DNA from: an uncultured delta proteobacterium
Lineage (GTDB): Bacteria; Desulfobacterota; Desulfobacteria; Desulfobacterales; UBA11574
Length of the DNA stretch: 64,000 nucleotides
Assembly: GCA_963778575.1 (NCBI GenBank)
Contig: CAVZUV010000003.1
Span: 17,903 to 81,902, forward strand
Direction of reading: 5' to 3'
Positions 17,081 through 39,963 of this stretch are shown here, piece after piece. Made by a program: the position numbers and the translations under genes. The notes beneath the pieces are model-generated. The model saw nothing but the letters and a program-made list of their open reading frames with translations, did not search any database and was not told where the DNA came from. The first letter of the stretch is position 1. Each line of letters starts with the position of its first letter.

Positions 17081-18946
17081 TTACACTCCATATTCGAGGT
17101 ATTCTCGTTTTTTTTCAAACTCAGCCTTTTTTTCTTCAAGGCTGGCCGTGGATTGCTCAAGTTCATCAAAGAGGGTATCGATGGCCGATTGGCAGCGATG
17201 GATGGATCGAGAGAGATCGCCGATCTTCTCACCATCGCCGGCCTGTGAAGCCGCCAGCATATCCGCATTGAGTTCGTTGAGCTCTTTTTCATATTTTTCG
17301 ATCCGATTTTCAATACTTAAAATTCGTTGCTCCAAGGGTTTGAGGATCTTGGATCGTTCGGCAATAAATGTGGAACGTATCCGTCTTTTTTCTTTTTTGG
17401 TCAACTTAACCGGCGATTCACCGTTATCCATTTTTTCGGAAAAGGATTTTAAAGCGTCTGTTTCGTCCGCCCATCCGCCTTTTTCCAGAAACCGCTGATA
17501 CCCCCCCTCGAACACATGGATACCGTGATTCTGAAATACGATGAGACGCTCGGCAAGCGCGTGCAAAAACATTTCGTTATGCGTCACCATGATGACTGTG
17601 CCGTCAAAATTGTCGATGGCGGCAAGCATTGCATCGCATGATTCCATGTCGAGGTGATTGGTGGGTTCATCGAGAAGCAAAAGATTTACCGGAGTGACGA
17701 GAAGTTTTCCAAGAATCACCCGGCTTTTTTCTCCACCCGAAAGAACAGCGATTTTTTTCAAAGCAGCATCACCTTCAAACATCATTGCGCCACAGATAGT
17801 CCTTGCCTGCTGGCGGTCGACATCCGGGTGTGAGAAGAGGATTTCTTCTTCAACGGTTCTCGATCCATCCAGATTCATGACATTGCTCTGTTCAAAATAT
17901 CCTTGTTTAACGGAGGGATTCAGTGAGATGTCGCCGCTGTGGGGTTTAAGTGCCCCGGACATCAGCTTTAAAAGTGTTGTTTTGCCTTTACCGTTTTTCC
18001 CGACCACACAGATCCGTTCCCCGGCCTTTGCCGAAAAGTTGAGATCTCTGATCAACGGTTTTTCGGGCTCGTACGAATAGGAGAGGTGTCCAATCTTCAT
18101 AACATCTTTTTTAGGATACGGGGCGCTTCGAAAAGAAAAATCAAGGTCCTTGATCCGCTCCAATTTATCTTTTTTTTCCATTTTAGACAGAGTCTTGATC
18201 CGCGACTGAACCAAACCGGCCAGCCTTGCCTTGGCCCTGAACCTGTTGATAAACAGCTTTATCTCTTTTTTGCGCCGTTCGTCGTTGAGGCGGGTCTTTT
18301 CGTAAATCTCTTCGTCCTGGGCGATCTGCGCATAATATTTTTCAGTATTTCCGGTCAGTTTTCTGATCTTGTGGCGATGAATTCCGAGGGTGTGTGAAAT
18401 CACCTTATCCATAAAGCTTCTATCGTGGGTGATAAGCATCAGTTCGCGAGGCCAGCGGATCAGATAACGTTCTACCCATCGAATGGAAGTAATGTCCAGA
18501 TAATTGGTGGGCTCATCCAAAAGCAGCAGATCAGGTTCGGAGACGAGCACCTTTGCAAGGTTCAGTCGAACCTGAAAACCTCCTGAAAATTCTTCAGGAG
18601 GCCGGTTGAAGTCCTCTTTGGAGAACCCGAGTCCTGAAAGTATTTCTTCGACTTTCCATTGGCAGTCTTCCTGGTCTTCACGAAGCCCGGTCATTCCCTC
18701 TGCGAGCACGGTGTCTTTTGTGAACTCAATCTCCTGGCGAACATATCCGATACGGTAATGTTTGGGGATGACAATATCTCCCGAATCATAAGGTATTTGT
18801 CCGGTGATGAGTCGAAAAAGGGTGGTTTTCCCGTGTCCGTTTCGACCAACGACCCCGATCTTTTCTTTAGGGTTCAGTTTAAAACCAGCTTTGTCGAAGA
18901 GCACCTCCGCGCCGTAGCTTTTTGTTAAATTTTCAACGGTTATCAT
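17081..18946 (-). CDS. ABC-F family ATPase (two ABC domains, no TMD)
   Basis: Two Walker A motifs (GRNGHGKTT, GKNGKGKTT) and two signature motifs (FSGGFQ, LSGGEK), plus a C-terminal coiled-coil tail. The start is taken at MITVENLTKSYG (ATG 18946). Confidence 0.85.
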   Translation of the reverse strand: MITVENLTKSYGAEVLFDKAGFKLNPKEKIGVVGRNGHGKTTLFRLITGQIPYDSGDIVIPKHYRIGYVRQEIEFTKDTVLAEGMTGLREDQEDCQWKVEEILSGLGFSKEDFNRPPEEFSGGFQVRLNLAKVLVSEPDLLLLDEPTNYLDITSIRWVERYLIRWPRELMLITHDRSFMDKVISHTLGIHRHKIRKLTGNTEKYYAQIAQDEEIYEKTRLNDERRKKEIKLFINRFRAKARLAGLVQSRIKTLSKMEKKDKLERIKDLDFSFRSAPYPKKDVMKIGHLSYSYEPEKPLIRDLNFSAKAGERICVVGKNGKGKTTLLKLMSGALKPHSGDISLNPSVKQGYFEQSNVMNLDGSRTVEEEILFSHPDVDRQQARTICGAMMFEGDAALKKIAVLSGGEKSRVILGKLLVTPVNLLLLDEPTNHLDMESCDAMLAAIDNFDGTVIMVTHNEMFLHALAERLIVFQNHGIHVFEGGYQRFLEKGGWADETDALKSFSEKMDNGESPVKLTKKEKRRIRSTFIAERSKILKPLEQRILSIENRIEKYEKELNELNADMLAASQAGDGEKIGDLSRSIHRCQSAIDTLFDELEQSTASLEEKKAEFEKKREYLEYGV

Positions 18947-23232: not shown

Positions 23233-23308
23233 GCCAGAGTAGCTCAGTTGGTAGAGCGCCTCACTTGTAATGAGGATGTCGCGGGTTCAACTCCTGTCTC
23301 TGGCTCCA
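23233..23308 (+). tRNA. tRNA-Thr (anticodon UGU), CCA encoded
   Basis: Hand-folded cloverleaf: acceptor GCCAGAG/CTCTGGC, anticodon arm CCTCA-CTTGTAA-TGAGG, T-loop TTCAACT. Confidence 0.85.
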
Positions 23309-23327
23309 TATATGAAAATGTCTTTCA

Positions 23328-23412
23328 GGTGGGGTTCCCGAGTGGTCAAAGGGAACAGACTGTAAATCTGTCGGCGAAGCCTTCGGAGGTTCAAATCCTC
23401 CCCCCACCACCA
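23328..23412 (+). tRNA. tRNA-Tyr (GUA), class II long variable arm, CCA encoded
   Basis: Acceptor GGTGGGG/CCCCACC, anticodon arm ACAGA-CTGTAAA-TCTGT, T arm GGAGG-TTCAAAT-CCTCC. Confidence 0.9.
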
Positions 23413-23575
23413 GCCCCAAGGTAAGTCGTATGTAGGAGATTTCAGTGTGGTATATTGAAATCGAGAGAGACTACATGGCTTCTTACGTAACACGTACTAC
23501 ACTTTTTTGAGGAAACTTATAAACATCATCATCTTAAAGAAGAAATATTTTTCAGGTTATTTTTAGGGCATATGA

Positions 23576-23651
23576 GCGGGAGTAGCTCAGTTGGTAGAGC
23601 TCTAGCCTTCCAAGCTGGATGTCGCGAGTTCGAGTCTCGTCTCCCGCTCCA
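23576..23651 (+). tRNA. tRNA-Gly (UCC), CCA encoded
   Basis: Acceptor GCGGGAG/CTCCCGC, anticodon arm CTAGC-CTTCCAA-GCTGG, T arm GCGAG-TTCGAGT-CTCGT. Confidence 0.9.
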
Positions 23652-23735
23652 CGTTGCGTATTAATAGCCTTAATTGGAATATAAAATATTGTGACCAGTT
23701 TTTTTTGCTCAATCAAGGAAGAACTATGAAAAAGT

Positions 23736-23812
23736 GCCCACGTAGCTCAGTAGGTAGAGCGCTTCCTTGGTAAGGAAGAGGTTCACCGGTTCAATTCCGG
23801 TCGTGGGCTCCA
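23736..23812 (+). tRNA. tRNA-Thr (GGU), CCA encoded
   Basis: Acceptor GCCCACG/CGTGGGC, anticodon arm CTTCC-TTGGTAA-GGAAG, T arm CCGGT-TCAATTC-CGG. Confidence 0.9.
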
Positions 23813-23906: not shown

Positions 23907-25115
23907 GGGAGGGTTTCGAAGATGGGTAAGGAAAAATTTGAGCGGACCAAGCCGCATGTAAACGTGGGTACGATCGGTCATATCGATCACGGGAAGACGA
24001 CATTGACGGCGGCGATTACGAAGCATATGGGCCTGAAGGGGATGGCGAGTTATGTACCGTTTGATCAGATCGACAAGGCGCCGGAGGAGAAGGAGCGGGG
24101 GATAACCATAGCGACGGCGCATGTTGAGTATGAGACGGCGAATCGTCATTATGCGCATGTGGATTGTCCGGGTCATGCGGATTACATCAAGAACATGATT
24201 ACGGGAGCGGCCCAGATGGACGGGGCGATATTGGTGGTTGGCGCCGACGACGGTCCGATGCCCCAGACGCGGGAACACATATTGTTGGCGCGTCAGGTGG
24301 GGGTTCCTCAGATTGTAGTATTTTTAAACAAGTGTGACATGGTGGATGATGAAGAGCTGATAGAGCTTGTTGAGTTGGAGCTTCGGGAATTATTGGACAA
24401 GTATGAGTTTCCGGGGGATGACACGCCGATCATTCGTGGGAGTGCGTTAAAGGCGCTTGAGAGTGATGATGCGGACAGTGCGGAAGCGAAGTGTATATTT
24501 GAGTTATTGGAAGCGGTGGACACGTTTATACCGGAGCCCCAGCGGGATATCGACAAGCCGTTTTTGATGCCGATAGAGGATGTATTCAGCATATCGGGAC
24601 GAGGGACGGTGGTAACGGGTCGCGTTGATCGCGGGGTTATTCATGTCGGAGATGAGATAGAGGTAGTAGGGATACGTCCGACGATGAAGACGGTGTGTAC
24701 CGGGGTAGAGATGTTCAGGAAGCTTTTGGATGAAGGGCGAGCGGGAGACAACATCGGGGTATTGATGCGCGGGACGAAGCGAGACGAAGTTGAGCGTGGT
24801 CAGGTGGTGGCGCAGCCGAAGACGATAGAGCCGCACACGAAGTTCAAGGCGGAGGTATACATATTGAGCAAGGAAGAGGGAGGCCGTCACACGCCGTTTT
24901 TCAACGGGTATCGGCCGCAGTTTTATTTTCGGACGACGGATGTTACGGGGAATTTAACATTACCGGAAGGGGTAGAGATGGTGATGCCCGGTGACAATAT
25001 AACGATTACGGCAGAGTTGATAACGCCCATAGCGATGGAGAAGGAATTGCGGTTTGCCATCCGGGAAGGCGGCCGGACAGTGGGCGCCGGCGTGGTGAGC
25101 GATATTTTAGCGTAA
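23907..25115 (+). repeat. 1209-bp direct repeat, copy 1 (tuf plus 15 nt of RBS region)
   Basis: By-eye comparison shows identity with 38755..39963. The forward and three antisense ORF translations are identical between copies. Identity starts at GGGAGGGTTTCGAAG and ends at the stop codon. Confidence 0.9.
23922..25115 (+). CDS. tuf: Elongation factor Tu (copy downstream of the tRNA cluster, tufB-like position)
   Basis: 397 aa with [22 protein letters not shown] and SAL. The context thr-tyr-gly-thr tRNAs-tuf matches the E. coli tufB operon. Confidence 0.97.
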
Positions 25116-25368: not shown

Positions 25369-25444
25369 AGGCCAGTAGCTCTAACGGTAGAGCATCGGAC
25401 TCCAAATCCGGGTGTTGGGGGTTCGAATCCCTCCTGGCCTGCCA
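25369..25444 (+). tRNA. tRNA-Trp (CCA anticodon)
   Basis: Acceptor AGGCCAG/CTGGCCT, anticodon arm TCGGA-CTCCAAA-TCCGG, T-loop TTCGAAT. Confidence 0.9.
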
Positions 25445-28994: not shown

Positions 28995-31900
28995 ATGTCG
29001 GAAAGGCTTTTGGCATACAGACGCATAAGAAAAAATTTTGGGAAAATAGCCAAAATAATTGATATTCCTAATCTTATTGCGGTACAGCAGGAATCCTACA
29101 ATCGATTTTTGCAAAAGGATGTTCCTCCGGAAAAAAGAAGAGAGATCGGTTTGCAAGCGGTGTTCAAGTCGGTGTTTCCCATAAAAGATTTCACAGGGAC
29201 CGCTTCTCTTGAATTTGTGGGGTATCGATTTGGAGAAGTCAAACACAGCGTTCAGGAATGCATGCACCGGGGAATGACTTATGAGATTCCGCTTCGTATC
29301 ACCGTAAGACTGGTTGTATACGACATCGATAAAGAGTCGGGGGTTACAAATATCCGCGATATCAAAGAGCAGGAGATATACTTTGGTACGATTCCCTTGA
29401 TGACCGATAATGGGACATTTATCATTAACGGTACTGAACGTGTCGTGGTAAGCCAGCTTCACAGATCTTCCGGCGTGTTTTTCGATCATGACAAAGGCAA
29501 GACGCATTCCAGCGGCAAGGTCATATATACTTCCCGGATTATCCCTGTGCGCGGGTCGTGGATCGATATGGAGATCGATCATAAAGATATCGTTTATATT
29601 CGAATTGACAGGCGCCGGAAGCTTCCGATTACCATTCTTTTTAAAGCCTTCGGATATAATTCCGAGGACATTCTGGCCTATTTTTATAAAACGGAAAAAT
29701 TCGTTACCCAAGGCAAACGGCTGTTTAAAAAAATTGATGAGGACCTGGTGAAAGGTCAACGTGCCAGTCGGGATGTAAAGGATCCCAAAACCGGTGAAAC
29801 CATTGTTGCTAAAGGACGGGCATTTACCAAAGTTGCACTTAAACGTCTCGGTTCAGCGAATATCGACATGATTCCAATCAGTGCCGAAGATATTACCAAC
29901 GGCGTTTTTTTCAAAAAGATCGTTAATCCCGAAAATGGAGAACCGATAGTCAAATGCAACCAGAAATTTGACGAAGAGACTTACCAGACCTTGCAAGATA
30001 ACGGTATTACCGAATTTGATCTGCTTTATATTGACGGCGTAACCACCAGTGATTCCATTCACAAGACATTGCTTTTGGATAAAGTCGAAACAAAAGAGGG
30101 AGCGCTCATTGAGATCTATCGGAGGCTGAGGCCCGGGAATCCCGCGACACCCGAAGTAGCCCAAGATTTTGTTGATCACATGTTTTTTAAGTCTTCTTAT
30201 TATGATCTTTCCGGTGTCGGGCGAATGAAAATCAACATTCGTTTAGGCATCAACTCATCCATTCAATTAAGAACCCTTAGGAAGGAGGATATCCTCCTTA
30301 CAACGAAAACGCTGTTGGAACTCAAGGATACGCAGGGCGCGGTTGATGATATCGATCACTTGGGGAATCGCAGGGTGCGTGCCGTCGGGGAACTCCTTGA
30401 AAATCAATACCGTATCGGGCTGGTCAGAATGGAACGCGCCATTAAGGAAAGGATGAGTCTGCAAGAGGTCGATGCCCTGATGCCCCACGATCTTGCCAAT
30501 CCCAAGCCGGTTTCAGCGGTGGTTAAAGAGTTTTTCGGAACCAGCCAGCTTAGCCAATTCATGGATCAGACAAATCCGCTGTCGGAAACAACGCACAAAA
30601 GACGTTTGAGTGCTCTGGGCCCCGGAGGATTGACCCGTGAAAGGGCCGGCTTCGAGGTCAGAGATGTTCATCCGTCGCATTACGGACGAATTTGTCCCAT
30701 AGAAACACCGGAAGGACCCAATATCGGCCTTATTGTATCCCTGAGCACATATGCCCGGGTGAATGAATATGGTTTTATTGAAACACCGTACAGCGTTGTT
30801 AAAGGCGGTACCGTGTTTGAAGATGTAAAATTCCTTACCGCCTTTGAAGAAAAAGAACATCCCATTGCCCAGGCGAATGCATTGCTTGACGAAAAGAGAA
30901 GATATATCAATCCATTGGTAACGTCGAGGGTGGGCGGAGAATTCATGATGGTAAAAGCGGATGATATCGAGCTGATGGATATTTCTCCCAACCAACTGGT
31001 CAGTGTTTCAGCATCCCTTATTCCGTTTCTTGAAAATGATGACGCCAACAGAGCATTAATGGGATCGAATATGCAGCGTCAGGCCGTTCCTTTGATGGTC
31101 AGCAAGGCGCCTCTGGTGGGTACCGGCATCGAAGGAGTGGTGGCCAAGGACTCCGGCGTTACCGTGGTAGCGCGGCATAACGGCATCGTTATGGATGTGG
31201 ATGCTTCCCGGATCGTTTTGAGACATGAAGACAAAGATGGCGACGAGTCTTCCGAGATGCCGGTTACGGTTTACAACCTCTCAAAATTTATTCGTTCCAA
31301 TCAGAATACATGTTTTAATCAACGCCCTATTGTCAGAAAAGGACAAAAAATAATAGCCGGACAGATCATCGCTGACGGCCCGGCGACAGACCACGGCGAA
31401 CTTGCCCTTGGAAAAAACATTACCGTGGCTTTCATGCCGTGGGGTGGATATAATTTTGAGGATTCCATTCTCATGGGTGAAAGGCTTCACCGGGACGGCG
31501 TATATACCTCTGTACATATTGAGGAGTTTGAAGTCGTTTCCAGGGATACCAAGCTTGGCAAGGAAGATATCACCCGCGATATCCCAAATGTGGGTGAAGA
31601 GGCTTTAAAGGAACTGGATGACAGCGGTATTATCAGGCTCGGCGCCGAGGTGAATCCGGGAGATATTCTGGTGGGTAAAATTACGCCCAAAGGTGAAACA
31701 CAACTTTCGCCTGAAGAAAAACTTTTACGGGCTATTTTCGGAGAAAAAGCCGGGGATGTGAAGGATACTTCTCTGCGGGTTCCTCCCGGTGTTCAGGGGA
31801 TTGTTATCGATGCCAAAGTTTTTTCAAGGCGTGGCGTCGAAAAGGACGAACGCACCCGATGGATCGAAGATACCGAAATCGCCGGCCTTGAAAAAGAAAG

Positions 31901-33098
31901 AGATGATAAACTTTTCGTTATTCAGGCTGTGGTTCGCACGAAGCTTGAAAAATTGCTGGTTGGGCAGACCAGTCTTTCACCTTTGAAAAAAGGGAAAAAA
32001 GTTCTGATTCAAAAAGGGGATACCATAAACGCCGATATGCTGGCGGAAATACCTGTGGCTCAACTTGAAGGGATTGTTTTAAAGGACTCTCAGCTAACCG
32101 AGCAGACCCACGATATGCTTGAGCGATATCGGGAACAGTGTGACATCTGCAGAAACGAATTCGAGCGGCAGGTCGGCCGATATGAAAAAGGAGACGATCT
32201 CCCGCCGGGCGTTATAAAAATGGTTAAGGTCTATGTCGCCATGAAACGGAAGCTTTCCGTGGGTGACAAAATGGCCGGTCGGCACGGGAACAAGGGCGTC
32301 GTGTCGAGAATTCTTCCCCAGGAGGATTTGCCATATTTTGAAGACGGGACTCCGGTGGACATGATTTTGAACCCTTTGGGAGTGCCTTCCAGGATGAATG
32401 TCGGCCAGGTTTTGGAAATACATTTGGGTTGGGCTTCCAAAGGCCTTGGCGATCAACTCAACAAACTTCTTGAAGAACATAAGATTGAAGCGCTTCGAGA
32501 CAAAATCAAAAGAATATTTGAAGAACCGTCTACGAATGAGATGGTCGACGGCTTTGATGACAAAGAAGTGTGTGAGTTCGTAAAAGATTATAAAGACGGT
32601 GTCCACATGGCCACGCCGGTTTTTGACGGCGCCAAGGAAGCAGAAATCAAATCTCTCCTAGAAGAAGCGGGACTCAGCCCGAGCGGCCAGACAACGCTTT
32701 ATGACGGGCGCACCGGTGAACCTTTTAAAGAAAAGATTACCGTCGGCACGATGTATATATTGAAACTTCATCATCTTGTGGATGACAAGATCCATGCCAG
32801 GTCCATTGGCCCATATTCGCTGGTGACACAGCAACCGTTGGGCGGGAAAGCACAATTCGGAGGTCAGCGCCTTGGAGAAATGGAAGTCTGGGCGATGGAA
32901 GCCTATGGAGCGGCCCATGCGCTGCAAGAATTTTTAACCGTAAAATCGGATGACATGGCCGGTAGAACACGCATGTATGAAAAGATCGTAAAAGGTCAAA
33001 ATACGCTGGATCCGGGCCTGCCCGAGTCATTTAAAGTGTTGACCAAAGAATTGAAGAGTTTGGGCCTGGATATAACACTTTTAGAAGGAAAACAATAA
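28995..33098 (+). CDS. rpoB: DNA-directed RNA polymerase subunit beta
   Basis: 1367 aa with conserved beta motifs throughout (for example [38 protein letters not shown]). Confidence 0.98.
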
Positions 33099-33113: not shown

Positions 33114-36100
33114 ATGGAAACGTTATACGATTTTTTTGCCAAGCCGACTGATCCGAAACTTTATTCCGGAATCAGGATTTCGCTGGCATCTCCTGAGCAG
33201 ATTTTAAAATGGTCCCATGGAGAGATCAAAAAGCCGGAGACCATCAACTATCGTACGTTTAAACCTGAACGCGACGGTCTTTTTTGCGCCAAGATTTTTG
33301 GCCCTACAAAGGACTATGAATGCAACTGCGGAAAATATAAACGTATGAAGCACAGGGGCGTCATATGTGAAAAATGCGGCGTGGAGGTCATCCAATCCAA
33401 AGTTCGGAGGGAACGGATGGCCCATATTGAATTGGCCACGCCGTGTTCGCATATCTGGTTTTTAAGAAGCCTTCCGAGCAAAATCGGAAACCTGCTGGAT
33501 ATGACGCTGAAAAATCTTGAAAAAGTGATTTACTTTGACAGTTACATCGTCATTGACCCGAAAGATACGGATTTGAGTCCCCAACAGCTTTTATCAGAGG
33601 AAAAATATCGAGAAGCGCGCGAGATCTACGGGACACAATTTGAAGCCGGTATCGGCGCAGAGGCGATCAAGACATTGCTCGGGAAAATCGATCTCAATGC
33701 ATTATATAAAGATTTAAGGGTCGACATTAACGCCACCGGGTCAGTGGCAAAACGCCAGAAGCTGTCCAAACGGCTCAGAATTATCGATGCCTTCAGACGT
33801 TCGGGAGTCGATCCGACGTGGATGATTATGGACGTTATTCCCGTCCTGCCGCCGGATTTACGGCCCCTTGTCCCTCTTGAGGGCGGGAGGTTCGCCACAT
33901 CCGATCTCAATGATCTTTATCGCAGGGTGATCAACCGCAACAATCGGTTAAAACGCCTCATCGAACTGAAAGCGCCTGATATTATTGTTCGAAATGAAAA
34001 AAGGATGCTTCAAGAGTCGATGGATGTTCTTTTTGACAACGGGCGGCACGGAAGGGCGATCATGGGGTCGAACAAACGACCGTTAAAATCATTAAGCGAT
34101 ACATTAAAAGGCAAGCAGGGACGTTTCAGACAGAACCTGCTGGGTAAAAGGGTCGACTATTCCGGTCGTACCGTCATTACCATTGGGCCGAATCTCAGAC
34201 TGCACCAGTGCGGCCTTCCGAAGAAAATGGCGCTGGAAATGTTCAAACCGTTTGTTTATTATCGTTTGGAACAAAAAGGGCTTGTGTCCACCGTAAAAAG
34301 CGCTAAAAAGATGGTGGAACGCGAAGTGCCTGAAGTTTGGGATACGCTGGATGAAGTGGTTAGAGAATATCCGGTAATGTTAAACCGTGCGCCGACCCTT
34401 CATCGATTGGGCATTCAAGCTTTTGAACCGATTCTCATCGAGGGAAAGGCCATTCAACTTCATCCGTTGGTTTGTACGGCATTCAATGCGGACTTCGACG
34501 GCGATCAGATGGCGGTTCATATCCCGTTGTCCGTTGAGGCTCAGATAGAGGCAAGGGTATTGATGCTGTCTTCCAACAATATCCTGTCTCCGGCAAACGG
34601 CAGCCCGATTATCGTACCGAGTCAGGATATCGTTCTTGGAATATATTATATGACCCGAGGTGTAACCGGATCAAAAGGCGAAGGCAAAATATTTTCAAAT
34701 CCGGAAGAGGTTCGCAGTGCATACGATGCGAAAGCCGTAGATCTTCATGCCAAAATCATGGTTCGTATCGACGGTGAACGATATAACACAACCGTGGGGC
34801 GCATCCTTTTATGGGAAATCATACCCAAAGATAACATTATGTTGATGCGTCATATCAAGTTTTTTGACAAAGATGAGGCAACAACCGTTAATGACAAGAT
34901 AAATTCCGGTGAAGATTTTGTTGAAATGGTAGCTCAATATTCCAAAGGACTTGATCGGGAAAATCAGGGGCTTATCGGTTTATTCAGAAAAGACGAATTT
35001 AGACGGGTTTTCAGTGTTTCGGATGAAGATACGGAAAAGGTCTTCGCGCTTGAAAAGGATGAAATAAGCCATGTCATTTTTGCTGATGATGCCTACCATA
35101 TTTTTCAGATTGTCAACAAGCGTCCCGAAATACCTTTTACGATGATCAACACTGTCAAAGACAAAAAGACCTTGAGCGAACTTGTGGATTATGCCTATCG
35201 GAACTTGGGTCCCAAAGCGACGGTCATCCTGTCGGACCGGTTAAAAAACATCGGATATCAATACTCCACCGAAGGGGGACTTTCAATTTCCATTGACGCC
35301 ATGATTATTCCGGCAGCCAAGTGGGATATTCTGAATCAGGCCGAAAAACAGGCTGAAAAAATCGGCCGGCAATATACCGAGGGGCTTATTACTCAAGGTG
35401 AAAAGTATAATAAGGTCGTCGATATATGGGCAAAGGCAACCGATGATGTTGCCGATGAAATGATGAAAGCCATGCGCATTGCGCCGGTGATCGATAGCGA
35501 GGGCAACCCTGTTCTGGATGAAGAAGGAAGTCCCGTTGTAGAAGAAAGTTTCAACCCTATCTATATGATGGCCGACTCCGGCGCCAGAGGAAGCAAAGAC
35601 CAAATGCGTCAGCTTGCCGGCATGAGAGGCTTGATGGCGAAACCTTCCGGTGAAATCATTGAAACACCCATCAGCGCTAATTTTAGAGAAGGACTTTCCG
35701 TGCTTCAATATTTCATATCAACTCACGGAGCCAGGAAAGGTCTTGCTGATACAGCGCTTAAAACCGCCAATTCAGGATATCTTACGCGAAGGCTTGCCGA
35801 TGTCGCCCAAGACTGTATTGTACTTGAAGAAGACTGCGGGACGATGATCGGTGTTGAAGTCGAACCGCTGATGGAAGGCGGTGAAGTGATACAGCGTCTT
35901 GAAGAAAGAATTTTAGGACGTGTTGCAATAGAAGACATTCATGATCCGTTTACGGATGAAGTCATCGTTAAAGCCGGTGGAGACCTGGATGAAGATGCCG
36001 TAAAGGCCGTTGAACAGGCCGGACTTACCAAGGTGAAAATCAGGTCTGTTTTGACGTGTAGAAGTAAAAGTGGCGTTTGTGCCAAGTGCTACGGCCGAGA

Positions 36101-37511
36101 TCTTGCCCATGGTGCAAAGGTTGAAATGGGACAGGCGGTGGGCATTCTTGCCGCCCAATCGATCGGTGAACCCGGCACCCAGTTGACCATGCGGACGTTC
36201 CATATCGGCGGAACTGCGAGCAGAAGGGTTGAACAGGCTGATATCCGGGCCAGGGTAGACGGCACGGTTAAATTCGTAAATATCAATGTGGTCCAAAAAG
36301 ACAGACATCGATTTGTGGTAATGAACCGCAGGGGTGGCGAAATATCCATTATCGGCGAAACCGGTCGAGAGAGAGAACGTTTTCCGGTCATTTACGGCGC
36401 TCATATAGAGGTCAAAGACGGCACCAAGGTTAAAGCCGGAGATCTTTTAGTGACGTGGGATCCGTTTACAACCCCCATCATTACGGAAGTTGACGGTGCC
36501 GTTAAATTTGGTGATATCACAGCGGGTAAAACCATGCAGGAAAAAGTCGATCCTGTTACCGGGAAATCGAGCCGAACGATCATAGAGTCCAAAAGCGGTG
36601 AGGAGCGTCCAAGGATATCCGTTAAGGACAAGGATGGGAAAACAGCCATCTTACCGGGTTCTTCACAAGCCGCCCGATATTTGTTGCCCATAAATGCCAT
36701 TTTATTGGTTGAAGAAGGAGATGATGTTAAGGCCGGAGATGTTATCGCCAAGCTGCCGCGCGCCACGACCAAGACAAAAGATATCACCGGTGGTCTGCCA
36801 AGGGTGGCGGAGCTTTTTGAGGTTCGAAAACCAAAAGAAACCGCTGTGTTGAGTGAAATCGACGGTTATGTTTCAATATCGAAGGCAACCAAGAAGGGCA
36901 AACAGAAAATTACTGTTACACCGGTAGATGTCGGTGAAAAGAAAGAATATTTGATCACGCGGGGCAAACATATCAATGTTTACGAAGGGGATTACATCAG
37001 GGCGGGTGAAGCGCTGATCAGCGGTTCCTCCATCCCCCAAGACATACTGAATATCAAAGGTGAAATTGCCCTGGCCCGGTATCTTGTAGATGAGGTTCAG
37101 GAGGTCTACCGTTTGCAAGGTGTTCGAATAAACGATAAACATATTGAAGTTATCGTAAGACAGATGATGCGACGTGTTAAAGTCCTTGATGCGGGAGATA
37201 CGGATTTTATTCTTGAAGAACAGGTGGATCGGGTCCAATTTGAGGAAGCGAATCAGGCCGTTATCAAAAAAGGGAAGAAACCCGCTGTTGCCGGACCTCT
37301 CATTTTGGGCATTACCAAGGCGTCTCTTTCGACGGAAAGTTTTATATCCGCCGCTTCATTCCAGGAAACAACCAAAGTGCTCACCGACGCCTCTATTGCA
37401 GCAAAGGAGGATTATCTGGCCGGGCTCAAGGAAAATGTTATTATGGGAAGACTCATGCCCGCCGGAACCGGTCTTTTTAAGTATAAAGAATTGGATATTA
37501 TTTCGAATTAA
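33114..37511 (+). CDS. rpoC: DNA-directed RNA polymerase subunit beta-prime, carrying an extra ~100-aa internal domain
   Basis: 1465 aa. Features include the Zn finger [29 protein letters not shown], the bridge helix and a trigger loop with an SI3-like insert. Confidence 0.98.
34830..35129 (+). other. Parvulin/PpiC-type PPIase-like domain inserted in-frame in rpoC (residues ~573-672)
   Basis: The segment is [93 protein letters not shown]. It aligns motif-by-motif with E. coli PpiC (ALHILV..IKNGADFGKLAKKHS....GGDLGEF......F......GP....FGYHIIKV). Confidence 0.7.
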
Positions 37512-38184: not shown

Positions 38185-38658
<474 letters not shown>

Positions 38659-38754
38659 ACACATAAACGGTTTTGTTTAGGGTGTTGACCCACACCCGAA
38701 GCATCTATGACATAATAGAAAGCATATTAAATATACATTACTAACCCGTTTAAA

Positions 38755-39963
38755 GGGAGGGTTTCGAAGATGGGTAAGGAAAAATTTGAGCGGACCAAGC
38801 CGCATGTAAACGTGGGTACGATCGGTCATATCGATCACGGGAAGACGACATTGACGGCGGCGATTACGAAGCATATGGGCCTGAAGGGGATGGCGAGTTA
38901 TGTACCGTTTGATCAGATCGACAAGGCGCCGGAGGAGAAGGAGCGGGGGATAACCATAGCGACGGCGCATGTTGAGTATGAGACGGCGAATCGTCATTAT
39001 GCGCATGTGGATTGTCCGGGTCATGCGGATTACATCAAGAACATGATTACGGGAGCGGCCCAGATGGACGGGGCGATATTGGTGGTTGGCGCCGACGACG
39101 GTCCGATGCCCCAGACGCGGGAACACATATTGTTGGCGCGTCAGGTGGGGGTTCCTCAGATTGTAGTATTTTTAAACAAGTGTGACATGGTGGATGATGA
39201 AGAGCTGATAGAGCTTGTTGAGTTGGAGCTTCGGGAATTATTGGACAAGTATGAGTTTCCGGGGGATGACACGCCGATCATTCGTGGGAGTGCGTTAAAG
39301 GCGCTTGAGAGTGATGATGCGGACAGTGCGGAAGCGAAGTGTATATTTGAGTTATTGGAAGCGGTGGACACGTTTATACCGGAGCCCCAGCGGGATATCG
39401 ACAAGCCGTTTTTGATGCCGATAGAGGATGTATTCAGCATATCGGGACGAGGGACGGTGGTAACGGGTCGCGTTGATCGCGGGGTTATTCATGTCGGAGA
39501 TGAGATAGAGGTAGTAGGGATACGTCCGACGATGAAGACGGTGTGTACCGGGGTAGAGATGTTCAGGAAGCTTTTGGATGAAGGGCGAGCGGGAGACAAC
39601 ATCGGGGTATTGATGCGCGGGACGAAGCGAGACGAAGTTGAGCGTGGTCAGGTGGTGGCGCAGCCGAAGACGATAGAGCCGCACACGAAGTTCAAGGCGG
39701 AGGTATACATATTGAGCAAGGAAGAGGGAGGCCGTCACACGCCGTTTTTCAACGGGTATCGGCCGCAGTTTTATTTTCGGACGACGGATGTTACGGGGAA
39801 TTTAACATTACCGGAAGGGGTAGAGATGGTGATGCCCGGTGACAATATAACGATTACGGCAGAGTTGATAACGCCCATAGCGATGGAGAAGGAATTGCGG
39901 TTTGCCATCCGGGAAGGCGGCCGGACAGTGGGCGCCGGCGTGGTGAGCGATATTTTAGCGTAA
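38755..39963 (+). repeat. 1209-bp direct repeat, copy 2 (tuf plus RBS)
   Basis: Identical to 23907..25115 (see copy 1). Confidence 0.9.
38770..39963 (+). CDS. tuf: Elongation factor Tu (str-operon copy)
   Basis: The protein is 100 percent identical to the copy at 23922..25115. Confidence 0.97.

Follow-up and report, generated by a model that had tools for sequence, protein, structure and literature searches.

A parvulin-fold domain inserted in the beta-prime subunit of RNA polymerase in uncultured Desulfobacterales

Results

A 99-residue domain interrupts beta-prime at a surface loop

The subject of this study is a stretch of 64,000 nucleotides (nt) from an uncultured delta proteobacterium of the Desulfobacterales (GTDB lineage UBA11574; assembly GCA_963778575.1, contig CAVZUV010000003.1, forward-strand positions 17,903 to 81,902), referred to below as the window, and within it the gene rpoC, which encodes the beta-prime subunit of RNA polymerase (RNAP). 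rpoC occupies window positions 33114-37511 on the plus strand, on which all of its features described below lie. Its open reading frame (ORF) translates into a protein of 1465 amino acids (aa) in which all of Rpb1 Pfam domains 1-5 are found (E from 3e-80 to 3e-19 in a Pfam profile search). Nt 34833-35129 of this gene encode, in frame, 99 residues (aa 574-672) that are almost certainly, in both identity and anatomy, a parvulin-fold insert. A first-pass annotation, made by a model from the sequence, had proposed an in-frame insert of about 100 residues at 34830-35129; the insert and its end are borne out by our analysis, with the start moving to nt 34833.

On the N-terminal side, aa 559-573 (34788-34832) form a helix that ends at the insertion point (residues 104-111 of the modelled fragment described below) and align, as far as residue 585, with beta-prime of E. 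coli. On the C-terminal side, aa 673-685 (35130-35168) align to the E. coli subunit from L587 onward and to approximately residues 6-18 of cyanobacterial RpoC2. These flanks are contiguous in every solved bacterial RNAP, all of which align to the window protein as two stretches around aa 574-672; for the E. coli subunit (10ma_J), the N-flank is matched by residues 466-585 and the C-flank by residues 587-700, which places the insertion point at G586/L587. The concern, raised in the first-pass annotation, that the same segment might be present in ordinary beta-prime is thereby answered, the insert having no counterpart in any solved RNAP.

The domain enters beta-prime in the pore-1 region (Pfam Rpb1_3), in a surface loop that joins two helices. 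This is the same loop, between the same two helices, at which beta-prime is divided into RpoC1 (gamma, beta'1) and RpoC2 (beta'2) in cyanobacteria and plastids: residue 12 of RpoC2 (8syi_Z) aligns to aa 679 of the window protein, the RpoC2 N-terminus lies within ~5 residues of the insertion point, and the cyanobacterial gamma subunit spans the N-flank. In published structures, the beta'1/beta'2 junction sits "before the conserved region E" (PMC10895346). Whereas the chain is broken at this loop in cyanobacteria and plastids, here it is interrupted by a folded domain of 99 aa. The split loop also accepts an artificial linker, and the permissiveness of the insertion loop is proven.

The secondary-channel rim helices (aa 735-788, 35316-35477; E. 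coli ~650-700) form a coiled coil ~60 residues downstream of the insert, and correspond to helices at residues 278-298 and 304-331 of the modelled fragment. The first-pass annotation had correctly placed the rim downstream, but its distance of 50-60 residues is too short for the motif on which it relied, as AEKQAEKIG starts at aa 743, ~70 residues after the insert. Its statement that the insert lies near the secondary channel holds for the order of elements along the chain; the proximity in space had been read from that order only. As a lead only, we mention that E. coli beta-prime K615-Y626, which we take to be ppGpp site 1, lies ~30 residues downstream.

Profile searches and structure models agree on a parvulin fold

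When the excised segment was compared with Pfam, the Rotamase family PF00639 matched at 37.5 bits (E = 5e-9, gathering threshold (GA) 21.7; 32.8 bits in the full protein) and PF13616 at 28.2 bits (GA 22.5), both above the family cut-off, while PF13145 scored 22.3 bits, below its GA of 27. The top sequence matches in the Protein Data Bank (PDB) are the parvulin domains of PrsA (5htf, E = 1.7e-5). Judged by these scores, the likeness of the segment to parvulins is far beyond chance.

Structure prediction gives the same picture. A first AlphaFold2 (AF2) model of the insert, built on a 41-sequence alignment, has a predicted local distance difference test (pLDDT) score of 85-93 over the insert, and its elements run beta-alpha-alpha-alpha-beta-alpha(alpha)-beta-beta (E-H-H-H-E-H(H)-E-E), an order that fits the parvulin four-stranded antiparallel sheet topology beta1-alpha1-alpha2-alpha3-beta2-alpha4-beta3-beta4. 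In a Foldseek comparison with the PDB, the best 50 matches listed were all parvulin-domain proteins (PrsA, SurA, Pin1, Par14, PpiD and similar), led by the peptidyl-prolyl isomerase (PPIase) domains of PrsA in 6xd8 and 1zk6 (target template-modelling score (TMt) 0.80 and 0.82, root-mean-square deviation 2.4-2.7 A, probability 1.00). A second AF2 model, of a 370-aa fragment comprising aa 458-827, has a pLDDT of 87-96 across both junctions and a predicted template-modelling score (pTM) of 0.72. The flanks in this model can be overlaid on beta-prime of E. coli and Vibrio (36% identity and a query-normalised score, TMq, of 0.56 in the structure comparison with the E. coli subunit), and the terminal strands of the insert lead almost at once into the two host helices, with linkers of ~4 residues. 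Both the rotamase profile check and the structure check, on the insert and on the fragment, thus uphold the parvulin assignment of the first-pass annotation, and every motif that it had quoted is found in the translation.

The insert keeps both histidines and the proline pocket and lacks other catalytic residues

We next consider the residues that line the active site of parvulins, as aligned to Par10, Pin1, Par14 and PrsA and counted over 74 representatives of the insert at 80% identity. Both active-site histidines are present, as the first-pass annotation had read: His580 (34851-34853, strand beta1, the Pin1 H59 position) is His in 70/74 representatives (Arg in 3, Gln in 1), and His662 (strand beta4, the Pin1 H157 position) in 72/74 (Thr or Asn in the other 2). 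The hydrophobic proline pocket is likewise recognisable, with I621 at Pin1 L122 (Ile, Leu or Val in 68/74), F629 at Pin1 M130 (Phe in 68/74) and F633 at Pin1 F134 (Phe or Tyr in 71/74; 60 Phe, 11 Tyr). What the domain shares with parvulins is thus a profile score above threshold, the fold, the dual histidine and the pocket; the catalytic Cys/Asp is missing, as is the Thr/Ser that closes the hydrogen-bond network (roles of Pin1 T152/S154, Par14 T118 and other network residues are given in PMC6468809). In the loop S610-K-G612-L-D614 (34941-34955), Gly612 stands at the catalytic Cys/Asp position (Pin1 C113, Par14 D74), which is Ser in 53, Gly in 13, Ala in 7 and Asp in 1 of the 74. In the segment A657-D-D659-A-Y-H662 (35082-35099), Ala657 takes the place of Pin1 T152 (Ala 32, Ser 11, Thr 10 and Val 6 of 74) and Asp659 that of Pin1 S154. 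The GDLG of parvulins reads GLIG in the window insert, with Leu620, mostly hydrophobic in the representatives, at the position of its Asp. At these three points the first-pass claim that all landmark motifs are in place fails.

Asp614, two residues past the Cys/Asp position, is Asp in 65 and Glu in 4 of 74, and G619 (74/74), G622 (73/74) and E628 (70/74) hardly vary. Strand beta2 and helix 4 (aa 619-633, 34968-35012) contain the three pocket equivalents together with an R-K-D-E-F motif that, with Glu628, forms a lineage-specific conserved feature at the cleft rim. The following aa 634-644 (35013-35045) include a 6-residue extra segment relative to Par10, Pin1 and PrsA and a second acidic helix (AF2 helices 626-633 and 637-644). 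A Desulfonema-like branch keeps GDIG, near the canonical GDLG. The domain is acidic, with a net charge of -7 in the window and a mean of -7 (pI ~5) across relatives; nucleic-acid binding is unlikely for a domain of this charge, and phospho-specific recognition of the Pin1 type is rejected, as the extended basic beta1-alpha1 loop is absent.

One way to read these residues, the one taken in the first-pass annotation, is that the RNAP core has a catalytically active peptidyl-prolyl isomerase attached to it, which would isomerise prolines in transcription factors docking by the secondary channel, in partners of the sigma, Nus or Rho type, or in RNAP itself during assembly. Almost invariant histidines, a retained pocket, a Rotamase score above threshold and the GDIG of the Desulfonema-like branch all speak for this reading. 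Position 614 (Asp or Glu in 69/74) could replace the Cys/Asp, so that Asp614 might serve as a replacement catalytic acid, and free parvulins of the same subclass share an SxSPD[KR] loop. Plausible clients would be at hand, given that the free cytoplasmic PpiC of E. coli co-purifies with NusG, Rho, SuhB and RpoA (PMC7353009). Set against this are the loss of the canonical Cys/Asp in 73/74 representatives, the Ala at the network Thr/Ser position in the window and in 32/74, the degenerate GDLG, and the replacement of the first histidine by Arg or Gln in 4/74 and of the second by Thr or Asn in 2/74. Precedent points the same way: TbPar42 keeps more of the catalytic tetrad than the insert, with both histidines and the cysteine present, and is inactive, yet binds peptide (PMC6468809), and PpiD and SurA, the nearest architectural relatives, each have in E. 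coli one parvulin domain without isomerase activity (PMC2956729). An active isomerase cannot be inferred from the sequence, which leans instead toward a peptide-binding domain that is weakly active or inactive, and we regard the tethered isomerase as rather unlikely.

The insert is an old feature of a large clade of uncultured Desulfobacterales

To place the insert in its lineage, we scanned one genome per GTDB species and picked loci by insert peptide patterns. The same insert is present at the same site in 61 loci, each from a different GTDB species genome, at identities from 95% down to 46% and with full-length coverage. Their labels are Desulfobacterales, Desulfobacteraceae, "Deltaproteobacteria" or similar, and the carriers include Eth-SRB1, Eth-SRB2, Desulfonema-like metagenome-assembled genomes and the Olavius Delta-3 symbiont. 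Insert-bearing clusters drawn from NCBI, JGI, ENA and Logan number in the hundreds, some of them on contigs of 1.3-5.6 Mb. In whole-protein searches, the best 120 relatives of the window protein range from 1444 to 1466 aa in length, and the best 120 relatives of a divergent member (L058) from 1395 to 1531 aa; a length of at least 1459 aa is reached by all but two of the latter and by all but three of the two sets together. Both sets of lengths are consistent with presence of the insert, and named isolates are absent from both. Apart from cuts at contig ends, loss or truncation of the insert is seen in 0/61 loci, which were themselves found through insert peptides, and nearest relatives without the insert, looked for among homologues, were not found. 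An exhaustive HMMER search of 50% representatives returned, as beta-prime matches, only insert-bearing fragments; full-length insert-bearing beta-primes were presumably clustered under other beta-prime representatives in that set.

Among the sequences collected, L013 (CAXMTB010000006.1) is labelled "uncultured Nitrospinaceae bacterium" and has a typical insert-bearing Desulfobacterales rpoC (77% identity in the insert region); it is probably mis-binned or mislabelled. Two metagenome beta-prime fragments, P0014 and P0018, lose the reading frame inside the insert and display spurious basic "inserts"; these frameshifts likely come from assembly or sequencing.

The insert evolves under constraint. 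Pairwise dN/dS is 0.06-0.19 in the insert and 0.02-0.05 in its flanks, and p-distances over 65 full-length representatives average 0.57 for the insert and 0.16 for the core, with a maximum of 0.73 for the insert and values of at most 0.21 for the core. The insert is thus under purifying selection and evolves ~3-4 times faster than the enzyme core. Because inserts diverge by up to 73% between lineages, the insertion is old; it is specific to one lineage, a large clade of uncultured Desulfobacterales. The distance matrices of insert and core are correlated (Mantel r = 0.42, p = 0.001), and the pattern of divergence is consistent with vertical inheritance.

These data also bear on the possibility that an assembly chimera, or else a recent horizontal gain confined to this one genome, explains the insert. 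Two observations could be taken that way: an initial word-index homologue search with a 138-aa segment returned nothing (a limit of sensitivity, as later searches gave hundreds of matches), and the GC content drops locally. The drop noticed in the first-pass annotation is real: the insert has 38.4% GC and the remainder of rpoC 47.5%, and among stretches of 300 nt in rpoBC the insert falls within the lowest 0.8%. Its interpretation as a sign of domain acquisition has to be abandoned: the total GC of the insert lies ~4 points below that of the host gene in 58/58 related loci, yet GC at third codon positions (GC3) is approximately equal over these loci (0.456 for the insert, 0.472 for the host gene), and insert GC follows host gene GC over a range of 0.36 to 0.56. 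Because GC3 is approximately equal and insert GC tracks the host, the dip does not mark a recent transfer and we reject it as evidence of one; it is the Lys/Asp/Glu/Phe/Ile-rich composition of an old, ameliorated insert. A chimera is ruled out by 61 independent genomes that carry the insert at the same site, with the clusters and long contigs described above besides, and the reading frame is intact. Together with the correlated insert and core distances, these observations refute the explanation in both of its forms.

A different alternative is a passenger or structural spacer, tolerated in a permissive loop and constrained only to fold and to remain soluble, with neither ligand nor catalytic role or at most a steric influence on the access of factors. 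In its favour, the loop is demonstrably permissive, being the point at which the cyanobacterial chain is naturally broken and tolerating an artificial linker, the insert changes far faster than the core, and most of the strongly conserved positions are fold-determining parvulin residues. The low dN/dS over a long divergence is harder to square with mere tolerance, as are the retention of the insert in all 61 loci (the lengths of the best 120 relatives in both searches fit retention as well), the consistently acidic character of the domain, and the strong conservation of residues outside the core that line or border the canonical cleft (D614, E628, R631 and S652). On balance we hold the passenger explanation to be improbable.

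Closest known parvulins and RNAP insertions

Among the 292 proteins that the HMMER search returned at E <=0.001, the best matches after the beta-prime fragments are free parvulins at 28-31% identity. The nearest of these combine SurA_N_3 with one or more Rotamase_2/Rotamase domains in a PpiD/SurA-like architecture, and some SurA_N_3 + Rotamase_2 proteins share with the insert the 6-residue helix-4 extension and an S-x-[SGA]-[PL]-D-[KR] loop. By sequence similarity, the closest free relatives are the parvulin domains of periplasmic chaperones of the PpiD/SurA/PrsA type. SurA-type chaperones themselves carry parvulin domains as inserted modules, as the structure of SurA illustrates. A 7021-aa protein (P0109) matches query residues 6-75 over its residues 3382-3450, in six stretches (E = 8e-6), probably a chance similarity to a repeat domain.

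The foldase PrsA of Bacillus and Listeria provides the best matches in both sequence and structure, at ~24% identity; its PPIase domains have the catalytic Asp in S-E-D and an intact GDLG, whereas the insert has S-K-G, GLIG and the helix-4 extension. The inactive parvulin domains of PpiD and SurA have the same fold as the insert (2kgj, TMt 0.67; 2pv1, TMt 0.66) but work in the periplasm, inside chaperones, while the insert is cytoplasmic and lies inside RNAP. A functional tie between a parvulin and the largest RNAP subunit is known from eukaryotes, where Pin1/Ess1 act on the C-terminal domain (CTD) that Rpb1, the beta-prime homologue, carries in RNA polymerase II (PMC7994582). The parallel is one of analogy only: Pin1/Ess1 are separate, phospho-specific proteins recruited by a WW domain to the repetitive CTD, whereas bacteria have no CTD and the insert has no basic phosphate-binding loop.

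As an insertion, the domain resembles those already known in beta-prime, namely E. coli SI3 (beta'i6, in the trigger loop), the Thermus beta' non-conserved domain and cyanobacterial Si3. Like them it adds a domain in frame to a surface loop of a universally conserved subunit, is confined to one clade, throughout which it occupies the same position, evolves faster than the core in a manner compatible with vertical inheritance together with the host gene, and sits in the secondary-channel half of the enzyme. It differs from them in fold: a 2024 survey of RNAP architectures describes only SBHM/HABAS, BEAN (BBM2) and sLC folds among beta-prime inserts, and mentions neither parvulin, rotamase nor PPIase (PMC11515920). 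The same survey puts one of seven insertion sites in the middle of beta'-bD4 (PMC11515920); by approximate numbering, the site at E. coli 586/587 is ~15 residues downstream of that element. Searches of full-text literature gave no description of a parvulin insert in RNAP, in agreement with the first-pass annotation, to which no PPIase among beta-prime inserts was known. Precomputed Pfam tables list PF00639 on most relatives, so that the hit can be seen in databases, though it appears to be undescribed. The parvulin is thus a fold class not previously reported among RNAP insertions, and its function is possibly new as well.

Genomic context and other variable sites

The surroundings of rpoC are ordinary. 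rpoB (1367 aa; 28995-33098, plus strand) lies directly upstream in the usual operon context, and the gene order in the window is rplKAJL-rpoB-rpoC-rpsL-rpsG-tuf-S10 region. Within it, tuf directly follows rpsG (38188-39963), and fusA (EF-G) does not stand between them, unlike in the classical str operon. Two tuf genes are present (23922-25115 and 38770-39963), identical at 1194/1194 nt and with unrelated flanks, which could be due to gene conversion (cf. tufA/tufB) or to assembly collapse. A Thr-Tyr-Gly-Thr tRNA cluster precedes the first tuf gene and tRNA-Trp follows it (23233-23812 and 25369-25444), a usual arrangement.

rpoC itself varies in this clade at one more place, the loop that follows the rim helices (35478-35573, aa 789-820), which contains a short D-x-x-G-N/S-P-V repeat; here the relatives L036, P0305 and P0308 have ~58 extra residues of (V/I)LDKDGNPV-like repeats. 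In Desulfobacterales bacterium HSG16 (L055), a 51-residue degenerate duplication of the hairpin/TTVGR segment follows the aa 530 position, just upstream of the insert.

Discussion

Lineage-specific inserts are the main difference among bacterial RNAPs, and those that have been studied (SI3, beta SI1/SI2 and cyanobacterial Si3) tune pausing, factor binding and initiation. We propose that the insert described here may act as a rigidly mounted, cleft-exposing docking module that binds peptides in a proline-recognising, chaperone-like manner with little or no isomerase turnover, a reading suggested by the alignments and models to which we assign a probability of roughly 0.45. The first and last strands of a parvulin are neighbours, which would allow the domain to fit into the loop with ~4-residue linkers; because adjacent end strands need only linkers of this length, rigid mounting is predicted, on the outer surface of the enzyme on its secondary-channel side. 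The domain keeps its fold, both histidines and the hydrophobic proline pocket, and the hydrogen-bond network of catalysis has been lost at either end (Gly/Ser in place of Cys/Asp, Ala in place of Thr). So equipped, it could tether a partner protein, or one of its flexible segments, to RNAP or work as a local chaperone, in a role that would resemble that of the isomerase-inactive parvulin domains of SurA and PpiD.

Several points weigh against this proposal. Free bacterial parvulins of the closest subclass often have Ser, Gly or Ala at the Cys/Asp position and share the downstream Asp, and a loss of activity cannot be proved from sequence. Human Par14, moreover, has Phe at the Pin1 S154 position and is active (PMC6468809). 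Near-invariant histidines (70/74 and 72/74) would be expected if catalysis mattered, although both stabilise the fold as well. The predicted rigid mounting comes from a model of one fragment, in isolation from beta, omega and the rest of beta-prime, and some members of the wider clade lack the R-K-D-E-F motif.

A bolder conjecture is that of a working prolyl isomerase fixed beside the secondary channel, whose action on prolines of transcription factors, or of RNAP itself, would serve regulation or assembly. We consider this conjecture unlikely. If true, a built-in prolyl isomerase would be the bacterial, covalent counterpart of the Pin1/Ess1-Pol II pair and the first enzymatic accessory activity inside a bacterial RNAP core.

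The discovery has a practical side, in that it marks the beta'1/beta'2 split loop as generally permissive, a place where tags or domains could be engineered into beta-prime. The clade is environmentally important and includes syntrophic partners of alkane-oxidising archaea (Eth-SRB1/2) and symbionts of gutless worms. Every catalogued insert is built from a few small beta-rich modules, and the parvulin domain of this clade, which comes from a chaperone/isomerase family and has long been retained, shows that RNAP can recruit a quite different one. If the domain binds a partner, these bacteria would possess a new regulatory docking site on their RNAP; if it is catalytically active, they would possess a new built-in accessory activity.

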